22,930 bases of DNA from Planctomycetota bacterium (GCA_022574815.1 JACZRH010000042.1:322-23251); one strand, 5' to 3'. Shown: positions 2,080-19,935, counted from the stretch's first letter. Notes: generated from the sequence alone by a model not told the origin. Translations and numbers: made by a program.

Positions 2080-5000
2080 GTGAAACCCGGATCTTCCGCA
2101 ATTCGCACGACGACATTTTCCGCCACACAGACTGCCGGCGGCGCGGGCGTGTTCGATTCAATCCTGGAGCAGATGCGCCGGGGCGAAACGCCCGACGTGG
2201 AGCGACTGACCGCGCAGAATCCGGAGCTGGCCGACGAGATTCGGCAACTGGTCAAGGTGGTGGCCTTCGTGCAGGGAGCGGCCAACGCGTCCGATCCGTC
2301 GGCGGCGCTCGATGCCCGCGTCGCCGTCTCGCCGAAAAAACCCGTCCTGGGTGATTTCGAGATCGTGCGCGAGATTGCCCGCGGCGGCATGGGCGTGGTC
2401 TACGAGGCCATCCAGCGCTCGCTCGACCGTCGCGTGGCACTCAAGGTCATGCTTCCGGGCATCACCGTTTCGCGCGAGGCCCTGGAACGCTTCTCGCGCG
2501 AGGCCCGCACCGCCGGCGGCTTGCAGCACCAGCACATCGTCCCGGTCTACGCCATCGGCGAAGAGGACGGCGTGCCCTTCTACGCCATGCAGTACATCGA
2601 AGGCGAATCGCTTTCGGACTATCTCAAGAACGTGCGCAGCGAGCAGGGCGCGTTGGACTCCGAGCACTTCCGGCGCGTCGCCGAGTGGGGCGCCCAAGCC
2701 GCCGCGGCGCTGGACTACGCGCACCGTTGCGGCGTCGTGCACCGCGACATCAAGCCTTCCAACATGCTGCTCGACCGCGACGGCGACGTGTGGCTGACCG
2801 ATTTCGGCCTCGCGCGGCGCGACACGAACGTGACCATCACCGTGTCCGGCGACGTACTGGGAACCGTGCGCTACATGTCCCCGGAACAGGCCCGCGGCGG
2901 CTCGGGGCGGATCGACGAGCGTACCGACGTGTACTCGCTCGGTGTCTCACTTTACGAGCTGCTGACGCTGCGCCCGCCTTTCGACGGTCCCGACCGCGAA
3001 TCGACATTGAAACAGGTTTTGCTCGACGAACCCAAGCGGCTGCGCCAGCTCATCAAGGCCCTGCCCAAGCCGCTGGAAACGATTGTCCATCGCGCTCTGG
3101 AGAAGGAACCCGAGCGGCGCTATCCCAGCGCGGCACTGATGGGTGAGGATTTGCGACGCTACCTGAAGGGCGCGCCGCTGCTCACCAAGCCGCCTGGACT
3201 GATCGGGCAGCTCCGCCGAATGGCCGTGCGGCACAAAGCGGCCGCGGCGTTCGTGTCGGCGCTCTTTGCAGTCGTGCTGGGCTTCGGACTGTGGATGAGC
3301 TGGCTCTATGCGGACGCCGAGCGCCTCCGAACCGACGCCGAGCACGAGCGCACCTTGGCCGTTCAGGCGGCGCATAAGAGCGAGCGCATCAACACGTTCT
3401 TTCAGGACATGCTCGCCTCAGCGGACCCGGGCAAGCTCGGGCGTGAGATCACCGTGCTCGAGGCCCTTAACCAAGCGGCGCTCACCGTCGGTGAAGGTCT
3501 GAGCGACGAGCCCGAGCTCGAGGCCGGCCTGCGCCTGGCTGTGGCGCGCACCTATCAAAGCCTCGGTCAGTACCACGAGGCCGAAACGCACGCGCGCCGC
3601 GCCGTCGAACTCAATGAGCGCGTGCGCGGGGCCGATGACGCCCAAACGCTCTTTGCTCGGACCTGTCTGGCCGACGTGTTGCTCGATTTTGGCAAGGCCG
3701 GCGACGCGGAAACGCTCTACCGCTCGATCTACGAAACGTGGCAGCGTTTGGAGGGTGACGAACACGCCGAGACCCTTGGCGCGCACAACCGCCTCGGACG
3801 CGCGTTGGCCGCCCAGGCTCGCCATAGCGAGGCCGAAGTGATCCTGCGCGAATCGGTGGAGGGTCTGCGGCGCGTGCTGGGGCCGGAACACGCCAACACG
3901 GTGGCCGCAATGGGCAGTCTCGCGAATCTGCTCGTGGAATTACACAAGGTGGACGAAGGCGAGGCGCTGCTGAACGAGGTGCTGGCGATTGAGCGCGGCC
4001 GGTACGGAGAAGACCACCCCGCCCCGCTCGCCGCCTTGCGCGAGTTGGCCCATTTCTACCGTGCGCAGGGGCGGCTCGACGAGGCCGAGGCGACCGCGCG
4101 GCGGGTATTCGAAATCTCGACGCGCGTGCTCGGCGAGGAGCACCGGGACACGCTCAGCGCGTCGAACCTGCTGGCACTGCTGTTGCGCGACCTGGGTAAT
4201 CTGCACGACGTCGAACCGATCTACCGCAGAATCATCGAGGTGCTCGAGCGCACGCTCGGCGAAGATCACCCCCACACGCAGGCCACCTGGAACAACCTCG
4301 CGTCGCTGCTTCAGGATCTCGGCCGCTACGACGAAGCCGAGGAAATCCTCAAGCGCTTGATCAAGGCCCGCTCCGAACGGTACGGCGAGGATCATCCCTC
4401 CACGATCACTTCGATCAACAACCTGGGCACTCTCTACCAGGAGCAGCGCCGGCTGGACGAGGCCGAGACGATGCTCCGCCAAGCGGTCGAGGCGACGCGA
4501 AGCCACTACGGGGCCGATCATCCCCGCCTGCTGACCACGCTCTCCAATCTCGCGCTGCTGCTCGCGAGTCGGGAGAAGTTCGACGAGGCCGAACCGCTCA
4601 TGCAAGCTGTCCTGCAAACCAAGCGGCGCGTGCTCGGCGCCGAACACCCCAGCACGCTGGCGACGCTGTTCAATCTGGCCTCGCTCTGCTATGACCGCGG
4701 CGAGCTGCAACGCTCCGAAACGCTCTCGCGCGAGGCCCTGGCCGGCTGCGAAAGAACGCTCGGGCTCGAACACCCGAACACCATCCTGGCCATGCACCAT
4801 CTCGGATCTACGCTCGCCGAACAAGGAAAGTACGAAGAGGCTGAGACGTTCATTCGTCGCGCACTGCAGCTTCAAATCAAGACGGTCGGCGAGAACCACC
4901 CGTTCACTCTGGTCTTTCGGTCGGACCTCGGGCGGACGCTCTTTCGTCTCGGCCGGTTCACGGAAGCCGAGCAACTGTTTCGCTCCGTGCTCGAGCAGGG

Positions 5001-5268
5001 CCGAACCGACTCGCGCACCGGCGACTGGCAAGTGGCCTGGTTCCGCTTGTGGCTCGGGCGCTGCGTCGCCGCCCAAGGCCGCTACGAGGAGGCCGAAGCA
5101 GCCATCGTCGATGGATATCAGGCGCTCAAAGCCGAGCTGGGTGAAGAACACCGGCACACGCGCGAGGCCCTGGCGGCGGTCGTGCGACTCTATGAAGCGT
5201 GGGGCAAGGCGGACCGCGCCGCCGAGTTCCGCGCGGCCCTCCAAGCCCTTCCCGACAACAAGAAATGA
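2080..5268 (+). CDS. Membrane Ser/Thr protein kinase with a C-terminal TPR (kinesin-light-chain-like, TPR_10/TPR_12) array
   Basis: Hanks kinase motifs: GDFEIVREIARGGMGVVYEA (Gly loop), ALKVM (VAIK Lys), HRDIKPSNMLLD (catalytic loop), DFGLAR (DFG), SPEQ (APE-like). A single TM helix (AAAAFVSALFAVVLGFGLWMSWLY) follows. About 14 TPR units then carry recurring ...LG.EHP.TL....NLA.L.....Y.EAE.L... motifs. The ORF-track start at 2080 is GTG. An in-frame ATG at 2173 with GGAG 5 nt upstream is an alternative start. Confidence 0.88.
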   Translation: MKPGSSAIRTTTFSATQTAGGAGVFDSILEQMRRGETPDVERLTAQNPELADEIRQLVKVVAFVQGAANASDPSAALDARVAVSPKKPVLGDFEIVREIARGGMGVVYEAIQRSLDRRVALKVMLPGITVSREALERFSREARTAGGLQHQHIVPVYAIGEEDGVPFYAMQYIEGESLSDYLKNVRSEQGALDSEHFRRVAEWGAQAAAALDYAHRCGVVHRDIKPSNMLLDRDGDVWLTDFGLARRDTNVTITVSGDVLGTVRYMSPEQARGGSGRIDERTDVYSLGVSLYELLTLRPPFDGPDRESTLKQVLLDEPKRLRQLIKALPKPLETIVHRALEKEPERRYPSAALMGEDLRRYLKGAPLLTKPPGLIGQLRRMAVRHKAAAAFVSALFAVVLGFGLWMSWLYADAERLRTDAEHERTLAVQAAHKSERINTFFQDMLASADPGKLGREITVLEALNQAALTVGEGLSDEPELEAGLRLAVARTYQSLGQYHEAETHARRAVELNERVRGADDAQTLFARTCLADVLLDFGKAGDAETLYRSIYETWQRLEGDEHAETLGAHNRLGRALAAQARHSEAEVILRESVEGLRRVLGPEHANTVAAMGSLANLLVELHKVDEGEALLNEVLAIERGRYGEDHPAPLAALRELAHFYRAQGRLDEAEATARRVFEISTRVLGEEHRDTLSASNLLALLLRDLGNLHDVEPIYRRIIEVLERTLGEDHPHTQATWNNLASLLQDLGRYDEAEEILKRLIKARSERYGEDHPSTITSINNLGTLYQEQRRLDEAETMLRQAVEATRSHYGADHPRLLTTLSNLALLLASREKFDEAEPLMQAVLQTKRRVLGAEHPSTLATLFNLASLCYDRGELQRSETLSREALAGCERTLGLEHPNTILAMHHLGSTLAEQGKYEEAETFIRRALQLQIKTVGENHPFTLVFRSDLGRTLFRLGRFTEAEQLFRSVLEQGRTDSRTGDWQVAWFRLWLGRCVAAQGRYEEAEAAIVDGYQALKAELGEEHRHTREALAAVVRLYEAWGKADRAAEFRAALQALPDNKK

Positions 5269-12596: not shown

Positions 12597-13781
12597 CTAG
12601 TCGCGGCCGATTTCGACGTCGGCAGCGTCGAGCTCGAGTTGGTCGGCCACCGCTTTCGCCTCGCGCCGCACACCGGCGGCATGCTTCGAATGGTTCCATC
12701 CGCTGAGCGGGCTGACCTCGACCGCCAGACGGCCGCGGCGTTGCTTGTGGGTCCAGGTCGCGACGGCGCGGCCGCGCGCCAGCACCACGGCCGCGACGAA
12801 CGCCGACTTGCGCCAAACGAGTTTGCGATCCGCCTCGATCGGCGTCGTCCAGCTCTTGTCGGCGTGCGCCATCAGCAGCGTTTCCCACAGCGGCAGCAGA
12901 CGCAGCGGCCACTTCTCCGCGCTTCGCGGCGGCTTGACGCTCAGGTCCGGCATGTCGGCGGTCAGCGCTACGAGGCCCTTGCGGTCGCCGCAGCTTACGG
13001 GTGCCAGTTCGCCATCTTTGTTCAGCAAGTCCAGCCACTCGATGGCACTGGACACGCGCGCGCCGAAGAAGTGGGCCAGGTCTCGGGCGGTCGCCGGCCC
13101 GTACGTAGCGAGATAGCGGCGTGCCAGAGCGGTCGCGGCTTGGCGCGGGGCAGTCGCTGAACGAGGCCATTTAAGCTTGGGGAACCAGTGCTCCCGGGCC
13201 ACGTAGGATTGCTCGGCTCCGACCTTGTCGGCCATGCAGACGTCGCCGCGATGCGCGAGACACCAGAACAGCCGCCCGGCGGCGAGCTGGCGAGCGGCGG
13301 AGCCCGGGCCGACTTTCTCTTCGGCCTCCCGCAGATAGCTCGCAGGCAGGATCGGCTGAAGATCACGCCGCGTGAGCGGCCCGGACGCCGACCTCAGCAA
13401 CTCCCCCGCCTTCTTAACCAGCGCCTCGGGCGGCATCGCCCCGCGCCGCCCGCCGGGCGCCCACTCGCCCCGCGCGGCGACGATCAGCTCCCAGTCATTC
13501 GGGTCGAAGATGTGCAACGTATCGCGCTGCCCCCAGGTCCGAACCACCTCCCGCGGCGGCTCGAGCAGCCGCGCTTTGAGCTCTGCGGTGGTCGGCCGAT
13601 CCTTCATCCGCATGCTGAGCGCGAGCAGCGACGGGTTCAACTGCTGTGACTGCGCCCCAATCATCGCCCGCGCCGCGGCCGCGGCGTCGGGAGCGCCGGA
13701 ATCGGTCAGGTGCCCGCGGCGGGCGCGGAAGTAGAGGATCTGTTCGTCGGAGTATTTGCGAGCGCCTGATTCCTTGGGCAT
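12597..13781 (-). CDS. Winged-helix DNA-binding protein of the AlkZ/YcaQ (HTH_42, DUF1006) DNA-glycosylase-like family
   Basis: 394 aa. The N-terminal MIGAQSQQLNPSLLALSMRM...VVRTWGQRDTLHIF looks like the Q-x-Q catalytic-motif region and the 'RxTxH' segment of AlkZ-like proteins. Family assignment is from memory of the family signature, not from a search. Confidence 0.45.
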   Translation of the reverse strand: MPKESGARKYSDEQILYFRARRGHLTDSGAPDAAAAARAMIGAQSQQLNPSLLALSMRMKDRPTTAELKARLLEPPREVVRTWGQRDTLHIFDPNDWELIVAARGEWAPGGRRGAMPPEALVKKAGELLRSASGPLTRRDLQPILPASYLREAEEKVGPGSAARQLAAGRLFWCLAHRGDVCMADKVGAEQSYVAREHWFPKLKWPRSATAPRQAATALARRYLATYGPATARDLAHFFGARVSSAIEWLDLLNKDGELAPVSCGDRKGLVALTADMPDLSVKPPRSAEKWPLRLLPLWETLLMAHADKSWTTPIEADRKLVWRKSAFVAAVVLARGRAVATWTHKQRRGRLAVEVSPLSGWNHSKHAAGVRREAKAVADQLELDAADVEIGRD

Positions 13782-13902
13782 TACAGTCCAGTTGCATCGG
13801 CACAGAGCGAAGCCGCATGAAAATCGTCAGCCCGTAAGTTGGCAGTCATGTACGGTGCGAATGGCCAGAACAGATCGCTGAAAAGTCGCTCGATCCTTCA
13901 GA

Positions 13903-14604
13903 CTATTGCGGGGCGGGCGTTGCGACGTGATCGCCGGATCTGATCGCTTCGCAAATCTCACGCACTGCGCGCTCAAACCGACGAAATGACCTAGGTCCGC
14001 AGGCGCGTATGGCCTCCAACGTAACCAACTGCGCCAACGGTTCTTGATCAGTCGATGGCTTATACCCGCGCTCCATATTCTGACTCAACCACTTCTTAGC
14101 GTCACGAGGTGATTCATCCGTATCCTGCTCGGACAAACGAGCCGAATCTCGAACGCCGGCGCGCCCGTCCGGGAGTTTCTTGCCGCAAAGCGACTCGATA
14201 CCGGCGAGCAACCAGGATTCGAACTCCTGTCGGGCAAAGACACAAGCAACCGAGAAAGTCGAACCAGCTCCGACCTTGCGAGCTTGCTCGGCCAAGTGGC
14301 GCGCCACAACGGCAGCGCAAAAAGGCTGTTTCTCTTGACCGATCCAGACGTGATCTCGATCGCCGTCCAGCACGAGTAAGATTCCGCCTACGTTCTTCTG
14401 CTTGACAGCCGCCCTGAGCCAATTGTGCCATTTCGTGGTATTTCGCCCCGTGAGGTTTTCGACGCCGCCCACCTTGAACGCGTTCGTACCGAGGACTATT
14501 GCCTCCCAGGCATCAATATGCCTGATGAGTTTCTTCGTGAGAGCGGCGACGGCGCCTTGGTCGCCTTCGCCCTCTACAAACAAAATCAGTCGTCGCGGGC
14601 TCAT
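13903..14604 (-). CDS. Standalone TOPRIM-like nuclease domain protein (DUF4276/RloB-like, OLD-family C-terminal-domain analogue)
   Basis: 233 aa. Begins RLILFVEGEGDQGAV (conserved TOPRIM Glu), later ILLVLDGDRDH (TOPRIM DxD). Overlaps the upstream ATPase gene by 4 bp. Local GC of roughly 50% against roughly 68% in the flanks. Confidence 0.65.
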   Translation of the reverse strand: MSPRRLILFVEGEGDQGAVAALTKKLIRHIDAWEAIVLGTNAFKVGGVENLTGRNTTKWHNWLRAAVKQKNVGGILLVLDGDRDHVWIGQEKQPFCAAVVARHLAEQARKVGAGSTFSVACVFARQEFESWLLAGIESLCGKKLPDGRAGVRDSARLSEQDTDESPRDAKKWLSQNMERGYKPSTDQEPLAQLVTLEAIRACGPRSFRRFERAVREICEAIRSGDHVATPAPQ

Positions 14605-15773
14605 TCCGGCGGTGCGGTACTTTCTGGATCAATCCGGGCGTCGTCGACCGTCAAGAGTTCGTCCGCGGTCATGAGATGCTCTTCGAGTGCCTCCCTTTGC
14701 TCTGGTGCCAACAGGCCGATTTTCGTTTCATACTGCTCCATCGTTACAACGCGAATCTGCTGCACATCGAAATGTTTCAGCAGTTGCGGGCTGTGCGTCG
14801 TCAGGATGATCTGCGATCGTCCGCTATGGGCCACCGCCTCGAACTGGTCGGCCAGCACTTCGAGCGCTCCTGGATAGATGCCCTTTTCCGGCTCCTCAAA
14901 CGTTAGAATCGGTTTCGGTGGTTGCTGGTTCAAAGCAATCATGTGTGCCAGGAATCGGCGGAATCCTTCTGATTCCTGAGGTAAGTGAAAGGAGAGCGTT
15001 TTTGCCTCACCGACTTTGTGACCGACTCGCACGTGAGACCCGTCGGGGGCCAGCTCAACACTGGTCACCGACGAATTCAACCGTCTCAATGCGGCAACAA
15101 TGTCACTGATCCGATAATACTCAGATAGATTGGTGGCGATCCCTTCGATGGCAGCCATATGGTTGCTCGCATCGTCCATGAGAGCCGTACCAATTGCGGG
15201 ATCGCCCATAAGAGCCGTACTAACTGTGGGGTGGAAATCTCCGTGAGCCAGCACATTCCCAGGAAAATCGTAACAACCGATCCCCTTGGTCAGCACAATG
15301 TGGGCGATTCGCGCTTCGGGAATCCCGTAGAGCAACCCAAAGACCGGCTGTCCGGGATTGGGTGGGTCGACAAGTTTCGGTCGTTTTGTCCACTGGTTTT
15401 GGTTTTGGGAGAAAAGTACGTCATCACCCAATGTTAGGCTTTCGGCAACGAAAATGGCTAGAGCCCGCTGCGGATCTATTCTGAATGCAAGCACGTAAGT
15501 GACGCGTTTGGAAAGACCGGGAACTTGAAACTCGAGCTCGAAGGACAACTTCGCGGTTGATTCATCTCGTGTGGCACACAGCAAGCGTTCCCATCCGCCC
15601 ATGTGAGTTACGGCCACATCGGCGTGCAACAGGTAGTCACGAAGGAACCGCAAAGCGTGAACGAAGTTGCTCTTGCCCGTGCCGCTTCGGCCGATCAGCA
15701 CCGTCACCGGCTCGAGTGACACAGAGACATCACGCAGACTCATGAAGTTGCGTATGCGAATCCGCTTGATCAT
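14601..15773 (-). CDS. ABC-type ATPase of the AAA_15/AAA_21 (OLD/AriA/AbiLi-like) family
   Basis: 390 aa. MIKRIRIRNFMSLRDV start typical of this family. Walker A LIGRSGTGKSNF. Signature-like ESEGFRRFLA. Walker B PILTFEEPEKGIYP. H-loop ILTTHSPQLL. ATG at complement 15771-15773. Confidence 0.85.
   Translation of the reverse strand: MIKRIRIRNFMSLRDVSVSLEPVTVLIGRSGTGKSNFVHALRFLRDYLLHADVAVTHMGGWERLLCATRDESTAKLSFELEFQVPGLSKRVTYVLAFRIDPQRALAIFVAESLTLGDDVLFSQNQNQWTKRPKLVDPPNPGQPVFGLLYGIPEARIAHIVLTKGIGCYDFPGNVLAHGDFHPTVSTALMGDPAIGTALMDDASNHMAAIEGIATNLSEYYRISDIVAALRRLNSSVTSVELAPDGSHVRVGHKVGEAKTLSFHLPQESEGFRRFLAHMIALNQQPPKPILTFEEPEKGIYPGALEVLADQFEAVAHSGRSQIILTTHSPQLLKHFDVQQIRVVTMEQYETKIGLLAPEQREALEEHLMTADELLTVDDARIDPESTAPPE
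15178..15237. repeat. In-frame 30-bp imperfect tandem duplication inside the ATPase CDS
   Basis: catgagagccgtaccaattgcgggatcgcc / cataagagccgtactaactgtggggtggaa. Encodes the tandem peptides VSTALMGDPA / IGTALMDDAS. Confidence 0.6.
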
Positions 15774-15893
15774 CCGTACGCCTCAGTCACGCCCACGGGT
15801 CCGGAGCCGACATAATTGGCTCTCTCACGCGCCATTCGTTGAAGCGTAGCGCGCATTTTCCAGCCAGCACGTGCAGTTCGAGATTATCACTTC

Positions 15894-16052
15894 TTAGCCC
15901 CGACATGCCAAGTCCACCGCCTTCTCCTGAGCCACCGCAACCGCCTCATCATACCCCGCATCCGCATGCCGAATCACGCCCGCCGCCGGGTCGGCGGTCA
16001 GAACGCGCTGCAGGCGCCGGGCAGCGTCGTCCGTGCCGTCGGCGACGATGAC
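15894..16052 (-). pseudogene. Displaced, diverged duplicate of the hutU 3' end (last ~50 codons plus its own stop)
   Basis: Positions 15908-16052 are about 90% identical to 16597-16742, which is the 3' end of the intact hutU. The reverse frame reads ...[14 protein letters not shown], against ...[14 protein letters not shown] in hutU. Homology stops exactly at the brnA-like stop codon. Confidence 0.6.
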
Positions 16053-16054
16053 CG

Positions 16055-16258
16055 TCAACTCGCCTGCTTGTGCTTCGCGATCAACTCCCGCACGGTCGCC
16101 ACAAGTTCCACCGGCACTTCGATCAGCGACTGTGTCCGATCGTGATAGGCCGCCTCGTCCTCGGCCACGGCCTCATCTTCCGACTGCCGCTCGTAGCTCT
16201 CAAGCACGCGACGCACGCGCTCCGCATCCCAACCGTCCGGGAACTTGGCTTGGCTCAT
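16055..16258 (-). CDS. BrnA-like antitoxin (RHH/BrnA family)
   Basis: 67 aa, [40 protein letters not shown]...[16 protein letters not shown]. Sits downstream of the toxin gene and overlaps it by 4 bp. This gene order is the hallmark of brnTA loci. Confidence 0.5.
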
Positions 16259-16539
16259 GTTTTTCTCCGGCGCATTCGCCGCCTGAACGCGGTCAGCGTT
16301 TTGCCTTTCAACTCGTAAGCCGTGATCACAAACACGCTTTCGGGCTCGGGTTCAGGTACGTAGATCACACGCAGGGACCGTCCTTCACGCGTCTGCCCCA
16401 GAGCAACCCGGCTGCCGTCACGTCCCGGCCGATCCTCGCCGGGTCGCGCAAGCACGTCTTCGATCTCATGCTCGCGCACGCCGTGACCGTAAACGTGCGG
16501 CTGTCCCGTCTCTTCATCAACATAATACCTCACAATCAT
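16255..16539 (-). CDS. BrnT-like toxin (DUF497/RelE-superfamily ribonuclease)
   Basis: Preferred start MIVRYYVDEETGQPHVYGHGVREHEIEDVL...RVALGQTREGRSLRVIYVPEPEPESVFVITAYELKGK (94 aa). It aligns with the BrnT consensus: KHGVsFEEA, then ERfvtlG..GRlLvVv.T.R...IRIISAR.A. The track ORF extends to 16656, but that extension runs into hutU and is Arg/Trp-rich junk. Confidence 0.55.
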   Translation of the reverse strand: MIVRYYVDEETGQPHVYGHGVREHEIEDVLARPGEDRPGRDGSRVALGQTREGRSLRVIYVPEPEPESVFVITAYELKGKTLTAFRRRMRRRKT

Positions 16540-16582
16540 GGCTGGATTCCATGAATTCCAAGACTGGCGCCGCGCGGGCGAA

Positions 16583-18400
16583 TCAGTTGAGCCGCGCCAA
16601 ATCCACCCCCTTTTCCCGCGCCACCGCAACCGCCTCATCATACCCCGCATCCGCATGACGAATCACCCCCGTCGCCGGGTCGGCGGTCAGGACGCGCTGG
16701 AGGCGCCGGGCCGCGTCGTCCGTGCCGTCGGCGACGATGACCATGCCGGCGTGCAACGAGTAGCCGATGCCTACGCCGCCGCCGTGGTGGATGCTGACCC
16801 AGGTCGCGCCGCAGGCCGTGTTGGCCATCGCGTTCAGCATCGGCCAGTCGGCGATCGCGTCCGAGCCGTCCTTCATGGCCTCCGTCTCGCGGTTGGGGCT
16901 GGCGACCGAGCCGCAGTCGAGATGGTCGCGGCCGATGACGAGCGGGGCGCTGACCCTGCCCGTGCGGACCAACTCATTGAACACGAGGCCCATCTTCGCC
17001 CGCTGGCCGTACTTGAGCCAGCAGATGCGGCTCGGCAAGCCCTGAAACGCGACCTTCTCGCGAGCCAGGCGAATCCAGCGGCAAAGGTGCTCCTCCTCCG
17101 GAAACGTCGCCAGAACGGCGTCGTCGGTGGCGGCGATGTCGTCGGGATCGCCCGACAACGCGCACCAGCGGAACGGGCCGGAGCCTTCGCAAAAGAGCGG
17201 GCGGATGTATTCGGGCACGAAGCCGGCGATCCGGAACGGATCGAATTCAGAATTGCGAATCGCGAATAACGAAGTCTCCGGGTCGAACAGGCCACGTTCG
17301 ACCGCTTCCTTTGCGTGGCCGCGGAGGTTGTTGCCGTAGTCGAAGGTGACGGCGCCGCGGTTTTTGAGTTCGAGCATGGCCGCGATGTGCTCGCCCATCG
17401 TGCGATAGGACTGTCGCGTGTATTCGTCCGGATTCTGCTCGCGCAAGCGCAAAAGCTCCTGGTAGAGCTCATCCGTCCAGCGCGGCGCCGCACCGCGCGG
17501 ACTGAAGTCCGCGGCTCGCCCTCCTGCGTGGGTTTCGTGGATTCCATTGGGGACGTAGCCGTTGAGCGGGTCGTGGGCCGAGGTCTGATCGGTCAGCACG
17601 TCGGGCGTGATGCCGCGCGCGATCAGCGCCGCGAGCAGGTCGGCGGCGTTGCCGACCCAGCCGACCGAAAGCGGCCGGCCGGCGTCCTTCGCTTTCAAGA
17701 CCCATTCCAACGCCTCGTCGAGACTGTCGGTCATACGATCGAGGTACTGGGTCTTGAGCCGCCGTTCGATGCGCTGCCGATCCACGTCCGCCCCGAGAAA
17801 CACGCCTTCGTTGAAGGTCGCGGCCAACGGTTGCGCCCCGCCCATGCCGCCGAGCCCGCCGCTGACGACGAGCTTGCCCTTGAGGGTTGCGCTGGCGGGC
17901 GAGACGCCCGCCTCGCCGCCGAAGTGTTTGCGGGCACAGGCGGCGAAGGTCTCGTAGGTGCCTTGCAGGATGCCTTGCGTGCCGATGTAGATCCAACTGC
18001 CGGCGGTCATCTGGCCGTACATGGTCAGGCCGAGTTTTTCGAGCCGGTTGAACTCGTCCCAGGTGGCCCATTTCGGAACGAGCATGGCGTTGCTGATCAG
18101 CACGCGCGGTGCGTCGGGGTGGGTCTTGATGACGCCGACCGCCCGGCCGGACTGCACGAGCAGCGTCTCGTCGTTTTCGAGCCGCTTGAGCGCCGCGACG
18201 ATGCGGTCGAAGTCCGCCCACGAACGGGCCGCCTTGCCCCGCCCGCCGTAGACGATCAGCTCGTCGGGATTCTCGGCGACGTCGGGGTCGAGGTTGTTCA
18301 TGAGCATCCGCAGGGGGGCTTCGGTGAGCCAGGACTTGCAGGTGAGCTGCGTGCCGCGCGGGGCGCGGACGGTGCGGGATAGTTTTTGATCCACGACCAT
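16583..18400 (-). CDS. hutU: Urocanate hydratase (urocanase)
   Basis: 605 aa. N-terminus [51 protein letters not shown] and the internal [21 protein letters not shown] before the ATG at complement 18398-18400. Confidence 0.92.
16597..16742. repeat. Resident copy of the ~145-bp hutU-tail direct repeat (partner at 15908-16052)
   Basis: Direct sequence comparison of the two segments. They bracket the brnTA cassette with a 689-bp period. Confidence 0.7.
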
Positions 18401-18576: not shown

Positions 18577-19935
18577 GTGAAGCTTCCGGAACGACCGCCC
18601 GACTGGCTTGAACTCGTACGAACATCGTCCGAACCGTTTCAGATCGTACGCGATCCGGAAGGGCGAAAGATTGTGCAACGCGCCAACGCCGAATACTGGC
18701 ACTGGGATCAGCTTCGCCGTCGGCCGAGCCCGAAGCGATGGAAACGCGAAATCGTTTGGGCTGCGGTCAAGCTTGCGCGCACAGCTCAAGTCCACGAGAT
18801 CGGCTTGCGCAGCACCGCCGGCGAGCCGTTTTGGTTCTGGCTGCCGCAACACGTCCTGGAGATCCTGCACGAGATCGATCTCGGGCTCGCCGGAACCATC
18901 GGCTTCAACCTGCCCGAGAGCGCGTCGCGCGATCGTCAACGCTACCTCGTGAATTCGCTGATGGAAGAGGCGATCGCCTCGAGCCAGATCGAGGGTGCGG
19001 CGACGACCCGAAAAGTCGCGAAGGAAATGCTCCGAAGCAAACGGCAGCCGCGCACGCACGGCGAGCGCATGATCGTGAACAATTATCGAACGATTCGCAT
19101 GTTGAGCGACTTGAAAGATCGCCCTTTGTCGGTCGATCTCATCACGGAGATGCAGCGCTCGATGACGGTCGGCACGCTCGATAACTCCGACGACGAGGGC
19201 CGGATTCGAACCGCCCGCGACCACGTGCGCGTCGTGGACGGGCGGGACGGCGAGGTGTTGCACAATCCGCCGAAGGCACGCGAACTGCCCGGACGGCTGG
19301 AATCGCTCTGCAAATTTGCGAATCACGAATCGGACACCGGATTTCTTCATCCGGTCGTGCGTGCGATTCTGGTGCATTTCTGGTTGGCGTACGATCATCC
19401 CTTCGTGGACGGCAACGGGCGGACCGCTCGGGCCCTGTTCTACTGGCTGATGCTGCGAAACGGGTATTGGATGTTCGAGTTCCTGCCGATCTCGCGGATC
19501 ATCAATCAGGCGCCGGTGAAGTACGGTCGGGCGTTCTTGTACGCGGAGAGTGATGAATCGGACGCCACGTATTTCATCATGTTTCACCTGCGCGCCATTC
19601 GTCAGGCGCTTCGCGACCTGCACGCCTATCTGGATCGACGTCAGGAGGAGATTCAAGAAGCGCGCCGTCTCGTGCGTGTCTTCCCGAACCTCAACCATCG
19701 GCAAGTCGCGGTCCTGCGCGAGGCTGTTTCCGATCCGCGCCGCGAGTTCACGATCGCAGCCCACCAAAGCGAATACTGCGTCAGCTACGGAACCGCCTAT
19801 GCGGACCTGACGGGGCTCGTCAAGCAAAGGATGATGGTACGGCGGCGGCTGCAAGGGCGACAATGGGTGTTCTTCGCCGATGATGACTTGGCGCGTCGTT
19901 TACGGGGACCGAAGCGGGCGAATCGAGTCCCCTAG
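18577..19935 (+). CDS. Fic-family protein (Fido domain, probable AMPylase/NMP-transferase) with a C-terminal winged-helix-like region
   Basis: 452 aa. Canonical Fic motif HPFVDGNGRTARAL. GTG start at 18577 per the ORF track. Confidence 0.85.
   Translation: MKLPERPPDWLELVRTSSEPFQIVRDPEGRKIVQRANAEYWHWDQLRRRPSPKRWKREIVWAAVKLARTAQVHEIGLRSTAGEPFWFWLPQHVLEILHEIDLGLAGTIGFNLPESASRDRQRYLVNSLMEEAIASSQIEGAATTRKVAKEMLRSKRQPRTHGERMIVNNYRTIRMLSDLKDRPLSVDLITEMQRSMTVGTLDNSDDEGRIRTARDHVRVVDGRDGEVLHNPPKARELPGRLESLCKFANHESDTGFLHPVVRAILVHFWLAYDHPFVDGNGRTARALFYWLMLRNGYWMFEFLPISRIINQAPVKYGRAFLYAESDESDATYFIMFHLRAIRQALRDLHAYLDRRQEEIQEARRLVRVFPNLNHRQVAVLREAVSDPRREFTIAAHQSEYCVSYGTAYADLTGLVKQRMMVRRRLQGRQWVFFADDDLARRLRGPKRANRVP

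Follow-up and report, generated by a model that had tools for sequence, protein, structure and literature searches.

To which family does a two-gene ATPase-Toprim module carried by a planctomycete belong, how might its proteins work, and is it an immune system at all? The module occupies positions 13,903 to 15,773 of a 22,930-nucleotide stretch of DNA from a Planctomycetota bacterium (GCA_022574815.1, JACZRH010000042.1:322-23251); this whole stretch is called the window in the following. Its two genes, here named A and B, encode an ABC ATPase and a small DUF4276 protein, and judging from profile matches they are a member of HEC-01, a catalogued candidate system, of the DUF4276 type, and not a new kind of system. 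This architecture has in fact already been catalogued, and it has been tested twice against phage. We consider that the pair is, with a probability of roughly 0.7, a self-contained, horizontally acquired HEC-01-type system, in which an ATP-gated Toprim DNA nuclease would act against phages or other mobile DNA.

The locus and its composition

The elements of the module and its two edges are the following (coordinates are those of the window).

14601-15773, minus strand: gene A, ABC ATPase of 390 amino acids (aa), AAA_15/AAA_21 (OLD/Rad50-like) type, HEC-01A, N-terminus MIKRIRIRNF
13903-14604, minus strand: gene B, DUF4276 protein of 233 aa, HEC-01B
14601-14604, minus strand: ATGA overlap formed by the TGA stop of A and the ATG start of B, read in the sequence as ...ccggaATGAgcccg...
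15774-15911, minus strand: non-coding leader 5' of the operon, with one sigma-70-like site and a GAGG
13782-13902, no strand assigned: spacer of 121 nucleotides (nt) with low G+C content (GC), 52.9%, from the stop of B to the start of an AlkZ-like gene

A preliminary description, made from the sequence alone, had reported the two open reading frames, their motifs and the overlap; the reading frames lie at the positions it gave, on the minus strand, and the motifs and the overlap are all present. The overlap implies that A and B are translationally coupled. In the leader, GAGG is located 8 nt ahead of the ATG of A, and the sigma-70-like site TTGGCA-17-GATAAT extends from 15911 to 15883; one such site was found where 1.1 are expected by chance, so that a promoter at this place is suggestive only. 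Promoter-like and terminator-like sites around the module were not above chance. The spacer downstream of B, in which neither a terminator-like site nor terminal repeats were found, is likely to be the downstream edge of the acquired segment.

The GC of the module is 55.9% (54.6% for A and 57.8% for B) against 64.8% in the rest of the window, and no other stretch of 1871 nt in the window has a lower value. GC at third codon positions is 61-64% in A and B, compared with 81-88% in the adjoining housekeeping genes. The module had been described as compositionally foreign at about 50% GC; it is still the lowest-GC stretch, and the figure has to be corrected to the measured one. A protein 100% identical to B is present in NCBI under the name 'DUF4276 family protein [Planctomycetes bacterium]'.

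Assignment to HEC-01

The assignment to a family, which had been left to searches with profile hidden Markov models, is settled by Pfam and PADLOC. Protein A matches AAA_21 (4.7e-24) and AAA_15 (4.7e-21) and protein B matches DUF4276 (1.4e-16, 61.7 bits, cut-off 30.2), far outside what chance would give and in agreement with the earlier reading of an ABC ATPase paired with a standalone Toprim (DUF4276/RloB-like) protein. Beyond DUF4276, the sole Pfam match of B at E <= 1 is a weak one to DUF3226; the named families Toprim, Toprim_Old, DUF4435 and RloB gave no match at this threshold. In PADLOC-DB, the HEC-01A model PDLC04178 covers residues 2-384 of A (profile 9-385 of 399) at 9.1e-49, and 10 of the 11 top PADLOC models for A are HEC-01A. 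For B, the HEC-01B model PDLC04200 reaches 2.8e-31 (residues 1-223, profile 1-211 of 218) and PDLC04196 reaches 1.1e-28.

HEC-01 (Hma-embedded candidate 01) pairs an ABC ATPase with a TOPRIM protein, nested in Hma loci (Payne et al., bioRxiv 10.1101/2024.01.29.577857). The pair described here shares its plan, since the two genes are neighbours on the same strand, the ABC ATPase gene precedes the small TOPRIM (DUF4276) gene, and both models are matched over their full length. The difference lies in the setting: HEC-01 was defined from copies within Hma (helicase-methylase-ATPase) loci, whereas the present pair and those of 62 planctomycete-dominated loci stand alone between housekeeping genes.

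Two other systems have a comparable organization. PARIS (AriA/AriB) also splits an ABC ATPase from a small Toprim effector and is a co-evolving gene pair (PMC11464382), as is the pair studied here; in AbiL (AbiLi/AbiLii) a small Toprim-like protein likewise comes after an ATPase, and the AbiLi model matches A. Were the pair PARIS or AbiL proper, it would be expected to detect an anti-restriction protein and, like PARIS, to cut tRNA. We regard this as very improbable. AriB is a DUF4435 protein that cleaves tRNA and AbiLii is RloB-like, whereas B belongs to DUF4276, has a predicted fold closest to a DNA nuclease and shows no match at E <= 1 to DUF4435/AriB or RloB/AbiLii models of Pfam and PADLOC; membership in either system was rejected for this reason. 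Models other than HEC-01 (AbiLi, AriA, Old and GajA) reach A at 1e-26 to 1e-15 only, with 3.6e-26 for AbiLi and 1.9e-22 and 9.1e-22 for the AriA models, which leaves the HEC-01A model at least 20 orders of magnitude ahead of AriA or AbiLi. When the A-family profile was compared with the PDB, the closest solved relatives were TsOLD (1.9e-16) and GajA (about 8e-10), and AriA was reached at E 0.007 only. Moreover, the coiled-coil inserts of AriA build a hexameric scaffold, whereas A has a short, partly disordered insert only. By these profile comparisons the pair stands beside PARIS and AbiL as a sister and belongs to neither; of the earlier proposal, which placed it as a member or sister of the OLD, PARIS and AbiL families, the sister relationship is retained and membership in PARIS or AbiL is dropped.

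The MAD3-MAD4 pair of the methylation-associated defence system MADS also places a DUF4276 Toprim protein after an ABC ATPase, here of the AAA_15/21 type, and the literature counts both MAD3-MAD4 and HEC-01 among the defence systems that combine an ABC ATPase with TOPRIM (PMC11464382; PMC12065111; bioRxiv 10.1101/2024.01.29.577857). The window pair is nevertheless not orthologous to it. The NCBIfam MAD3 model scores 76.6 bits against A, with a cut-off of 420; NCBIfam gave no match to B, and the only PADLOC match of B besides HEC-01B is a marginal and partial one to mad4 (E 0.015, first 84 residues). Membership in MADS was rejected on the MAD3 score and on the absence of the partner genes, because no methyltransferase or other MADS component was matched among the neighbouring genes tested.

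The ATPase encoded by gene A

All motifs of an ABC ATPase can be read in A: Walker A GRSGTGKSN (G28, K34, S35), the signature SEGFRR (Q266-E-S-E-G-F-R-R273), Walker B ILTFEEPE (F292-E293-E294-P-E296) and the H-loop TTHSP (T325-T-H327-S-P329). The residues of these motifs are kept among homologues, and the C-terminal tail ELLTVDxAR (372-380) is also conserved. The predicted model (pLDDT of 91.4, a predicted local distance difference test score) has the fold of an ABC head, with Rad50 and SMC as its best fold matches. As modelled, the head of this ABC ATPase is Rad50/SMC/PtuA-like and a long coiled coil is absent; the insert of A is short and contains a disordered loop at residues 183-193.

Two peculiarities of A were observed. 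Gene A contains a 30-nt tandem duplication (15171-15230, 83% identical, residues about 182-201), which encodes the repeated ...TALMGD.../...TALMDD..., is absent from most homologues and falls in the sole low-confidence, disordered loop of the model. At the position of E294, the catalytic glutamate of Walker B, 9 of 50 homologues have histidine and one has glutamine in the protein alignment, and the window protein retains the glutamate. Histidine at this position suggests that some members of the family may bind ATP with slow hydrolysis or none.

The putative nuclease encoded by gene B

The motifs read in B are FVEGEGD and LVLDGDRD. Its AlphaFold2 model (pLDDT 94.3) is laid out as a predicted Toprim core (residues 1-135) and a C-terminal helical region (residues 169-223). 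The best solved fold match is the C-terminal region of a class 2 OLD protein (BpOLD, PDB 6NK8), and it spans both the Toprim and the helical domains, which answers the earlier suggestion that B be compared with the Toprim domain of OLD. Among the Foldseek matches listed, only class 2 OLD regions cover the whole of B, with template modelling (TM) scores of 0.45-0.51, and none of those listed is a PARIS entry; a profile of the B family found no relevant chain among PDB sequences. DUF4276 is treated as a Toprim member in the literature (PMC12065111; bioRxiv 10.1101/2024.01.29.577857), and together with the fold match this supports a place for B among the Toprim families.

The placement of the motifs weighs more than the fold scores. 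In the model of B, E11 follows b1 (residues 4-10), D15 lies four residues beyond E11, D80-G-D82 stands at the end of b3 (residues 72-81) and E127-F-E129 comes after b4. E11 and both aspartates are kept in all 50 homologues; in the 50 homologous pairs E127 and E129 do not vary either, position 15 is occupied by D or E throughout, and K170 is kept in 49. In BpOLD, metal A is bound by E400, D455 and D457 and metal B by E404, T506 and E508, and K562 is contributed by the helical domain (PMC6755086). The spacing in B (E11-x3-D/E15, D80-x-D82, E127-x-E129) parallels that of BpOLD (E400-x3-E404, D455-x-D457, T506-x-E508). We infer from this that E11, D15, D80, D82, E127 and E129, with K170 nearby, are the candidate two-metal site of B, equivalent to that of BpOLD. 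Both the predicted fold and the invariant acidic residues fit a Toprim nuclease like that of class 2 OLD.

The likeness to class 2 OLD (BpOLD) and GajA concerns the predicted fold of B, the spacing of its candidate ligands for metals A and B and the conserved lysine, and it extends to A, which is in the same ABC subfamily. In contrast with OLD and GajA, where ATPase and Toprim domains are fused in one chain, two overlapping genes are present here; class 2 OLD has a UvrD-like helicase partner, whereas no helicase adjoins the window pair (no helicase family was matched among the flanking genes on both sides); and B, as said, has no Toprim_Old match.

The best relatives of B also stand alone. A profile search against 1.84 billion representative proteins found 2027 clusters up to E = 1e-3 and 165 up to E = 1e-30, and the best 150 relatives are all standalone proteins of 100-289 aa, most of about 220-240 aa, too short to contain an ATPase domain.

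The pair as a unit in related genomes

Related loci were retrieved with a profile of B homologues, which gave 66 genome loci, nearly all from metagenome-assembled genomes of Planctomycetota. An A homologue lies directly upstream of B on the same strand in 62 of the 66, and the four exceptions are three loci with a truncated B and one with B at the contig edge; the two genes are thus co-conserved as a pair. At their junction A and B overlap by 4 nt in 34 loci and by 1 nt in 4, and 12 loci have a spacer of 3 nt between the genes. Pairwise distance matrices of A and B are correlated (r = 0.79), and none of 2000 permutations gave a value as high. A and B are passed on jointly and diverge in step, as a functional unit.

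Decayed or truncated copies are present in four loci (L035, L051, L060 and L076). At the last of these (L076:3072-4891) an apparent ATPase-DUF4276 fusion (P0115, 296 aa) was considered and rejected because the ATPase gene is broken there: its N-terminal part forms a fragment of 186 aa, and a C-terminal piece is read in one frame with the DUF4276 gene. Decay of the copy or indel errors in long reads account for the locus, which is no true fusion and is consequently not used as Rosetta-stone evidence.

Composition and neighbourhood indicate that the unit moves. The GC of the pair is below that of its flanks in 57 of 60 loci, with a mean gap of 5.8 points. What flanks the pair in those loci, taken as two genes on each side, is heterogeneous and includes genes for serine hydroxymethyltransferase, aminotransferases, tRNA synthetases, SecA, Hsp70 and kinases; defence-like genes near the pair are isolated cases (one MmeI methyltransferase, two PIN and two nSTAND). 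Unrelated housekeeping neighbours across genomes argue for a self-contained mobile cassette, which is neither a resident of defence islands nor located inside Hma or MADS loci. The pair has been acquired horizontally by the planctomycete.

The route and the exact boundaries of this acquisition were also sought. No terminal direct or inverted repeats flanking the module were found. A metagenome scan for an empty site with the AlkZ-like protein yielded only relatives 48-63% identical, without hutU, A or B nearby, and the insertion boundaries are consequently set by composition only. IMG/VR contigs contained no relatives; phage records gave one distant match (26.5% identical) and plasmids gave three large Streptomyces plasmids (28-31% identical), matches that identify no vector for the cassette.

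Divergence from a sister strain

The module has the same gene arrangement in a sister-strain contig (L067), whose flanking proteins are 96-99% identical to those of the window, compared with 91% for A and 87% for B. This divergence is concentrated in a hot spot at window positions 14250-14690, which takes in the 3' end of A together with the first half of B: the two strains are 72-85% identical there at the nucleotide level, with a minimum of 72%, against 97-100% in the flanks and in the second half of B. The synonymous divergence (dS) is 0.67 in codons 51-115 of B and 0.06-0.12 elsewhere, and the ratio of nonsynonymous to synonymous divergence (dN/dS) in the hot spot is about 0.3. These values point to recombination with a divergent allele inside the module, and not to positive selection alone. 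Over the whole genes, A has a dN/dS of 0.39 and B one of 0.33, which shows that both are constrained by purifying selection.

Foreign composition in almost every host, insertion between housekeeping genes without a recombinase and allele mosaics between sister strains would all be explained if the standalone planctomycete clade were a selfish, self-spreading nuclease cassette, not primarily immune, whose breaks would promote its own copying to new sites and genomes. We consider such a cassette a far-fetched possibility.

Proposed mechanism and published tests

The reading that we prefer, an ATP-gated nuclease directed against phages or other mobile DNA, can be formulated by analogy with OLD, Gabija and PARIS, the last of which is the best-understood model of an ATPase that cages a nuclease until it is triggered. 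A and B would form a complex in which A, as an ATP-dependent dimer, would be both sensor and gate and would keep the nuclease B inactive. An infection cue, which may be a phage protein or foreign or damaged DNA, would alter the nucleotide state of A, and binding or hydrolysis of ATP by the A dimer would gate B. The Toprim domain of B would then nick or degrade DNA by two-metal catalysis, with metal A held by E11, D80 and D82, metal B by D15, E127 and E129, and K170 assisting. Replication of the phage or mobile element would be halted, possibly at the cell's cost. DNA is weakly favoured over tRNA as the substrate of B because its fold and ligand spacing resemble those of a class 2 OLD DNA nuclease and no PARIS entry is among the listed fold matches.

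Several points weigh against this proposal. The substrate (DNA, or RNA as in the tRNA cleavage of PARIS), the A-B complex and the trigger would all be as described only if the analogies hold. Related genomes have mostly housekeeping genes beside the pair, so that guilt by association gives no support for a role in defence. Published phage tests of HEC-01 are in conflict, one being negative and one positive. The representative chosen by its discoverers failed to protect E. coli MG1655 from any phage (bioRxiv 10.1101/2024.01.29.577857), whereas a HEC-01 from a cold seep was reported to protect E. coli B from one or more of the phages T7, T5 and T4 (PMC12881386); the latter report is sparse in detail and concerns a different homologue.

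Surroundings of the pair in the window

The pair is surrounded in the window by genes for urocanase, the AlkZ-like glycosylase and sigma and anti-sigma factors. The following features were considered in relation to it.

12597-13781, minus strand: AlkZ-like DNA glycosylase, directly downstream of B (1.1e-42)
16055-16656: DUF4258 toxin-like gene and a small partner, a toxin-antitoxin (TA)-like cassette near the pair
18577-19935, plus strand: Fic-domain protein of 452 aa, to which most of the profile of SoFic, a single-gene defence model of PADLOC, aligns (1.1e-43)
2080-5268, plus strand: Ser/Thr kinase of 1062 aa, matched by many PADLOC PD-T4-6 kinase models (best 4.9e-85) and also by mad6

The preliminary description had seen a typical defence-island context in a TA cassette and a Fic gene beside the module. 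Both are indeed nearby, the Fic gene at 2.8 kb from the module and beyond hutU, but the remaining surroundings here and the housekeeping neighbours elsewhere do not correspond to such an island. The PD-T4-6 and mad6 matches of the kinase are probably generic kinase-domain matches, as planctomycetes carry many such kinases. No Rfam family was matched anywhere in the window and it contains no tRNA genes.

The AlkZ-like gene leads to a different question, namely whether the pair serves DNA maintenance instead of immunity, as an accessory or housekeeping pair for repair, or as a chromatin nickase like the archaeal OLD-family protein Cran1, which illustrates that OLD-family ATPase-nucleases may have non-defence roles (PMC12796447). 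The gene that follows the pair in one related locus encodes endonuclease V (L001:6537-7208), another repair enzyme next to it, Rad50 and SMC are the best fold matches of A, and one of the two phage tests was negative. Across roughly 60 loci, however, repair genes do not recur beside the pair, and these two cases are probably coincidence; the neighbours are unrelated between genomes, so that there is no conserved repair context. The foreign composition, here and in 57 of 60 other loci, the decayed or truncated copies, the allele mosaic between sister strains and the protection from phage given by one HEC-01 also speak against maintenance, which we hold to be unlikely.

The TA-like cassette that adjoins the pair bears on another possibility, that A restrains B as a toxin nuclease in a selfish addiction cassette, whose loss would be harmful and which would bring no anti-phage benefit. 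Such a role would suit two genes so tightly coupled, which travel from genome to genome as a cassette without a recombinase of its own, and the Pfam name attached to AAA_21 is 'putative AbiEii toxin, type IV TA'. This label is a historical name and not a test, and the gene sizes, enzymatic motifs and family ties fit a sensor-effector defence and not classical TA pairs. Addiction and abortive-infection defence can moreover coexist, which weakens the opposition between the two, and an addiction cassette without immune benefit appears distinctly unlikely.

The TA-like cassette has its own peculiar boundaries. A direct repeat of 147 nt (93% identical, 15907-16053 and 16596-16742) is a duplication of the 3' end of the urocanase gene hutU. 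Intact hutU uses the copy at 16596-16742, and the DUF4258 cassette is separated from gene A by a remnant open reading frame of 54 codons (15894-16058). The two hutU ends bracket the roughly 540-nt cassette, which looks as if it had been inserted at the end of hutU with duplication or replacement of the target. The same arrangement was observed in the sister-strain contigs L067 and L068.

Significance for the HEC-01 family

In some metagenome surveys HEC-01/DUF4276 pairs rank near the top of the candidate systems by abundance (PMC12881386), yet their phage tests are in conflict. For the design of experiments on this family, the locus described here contributes a clean, standalone and strongly co-evolving clade, a high-confidence protein model, and a list of seven candidate active-site residues taken from the two-metal site of class 2 OLD.

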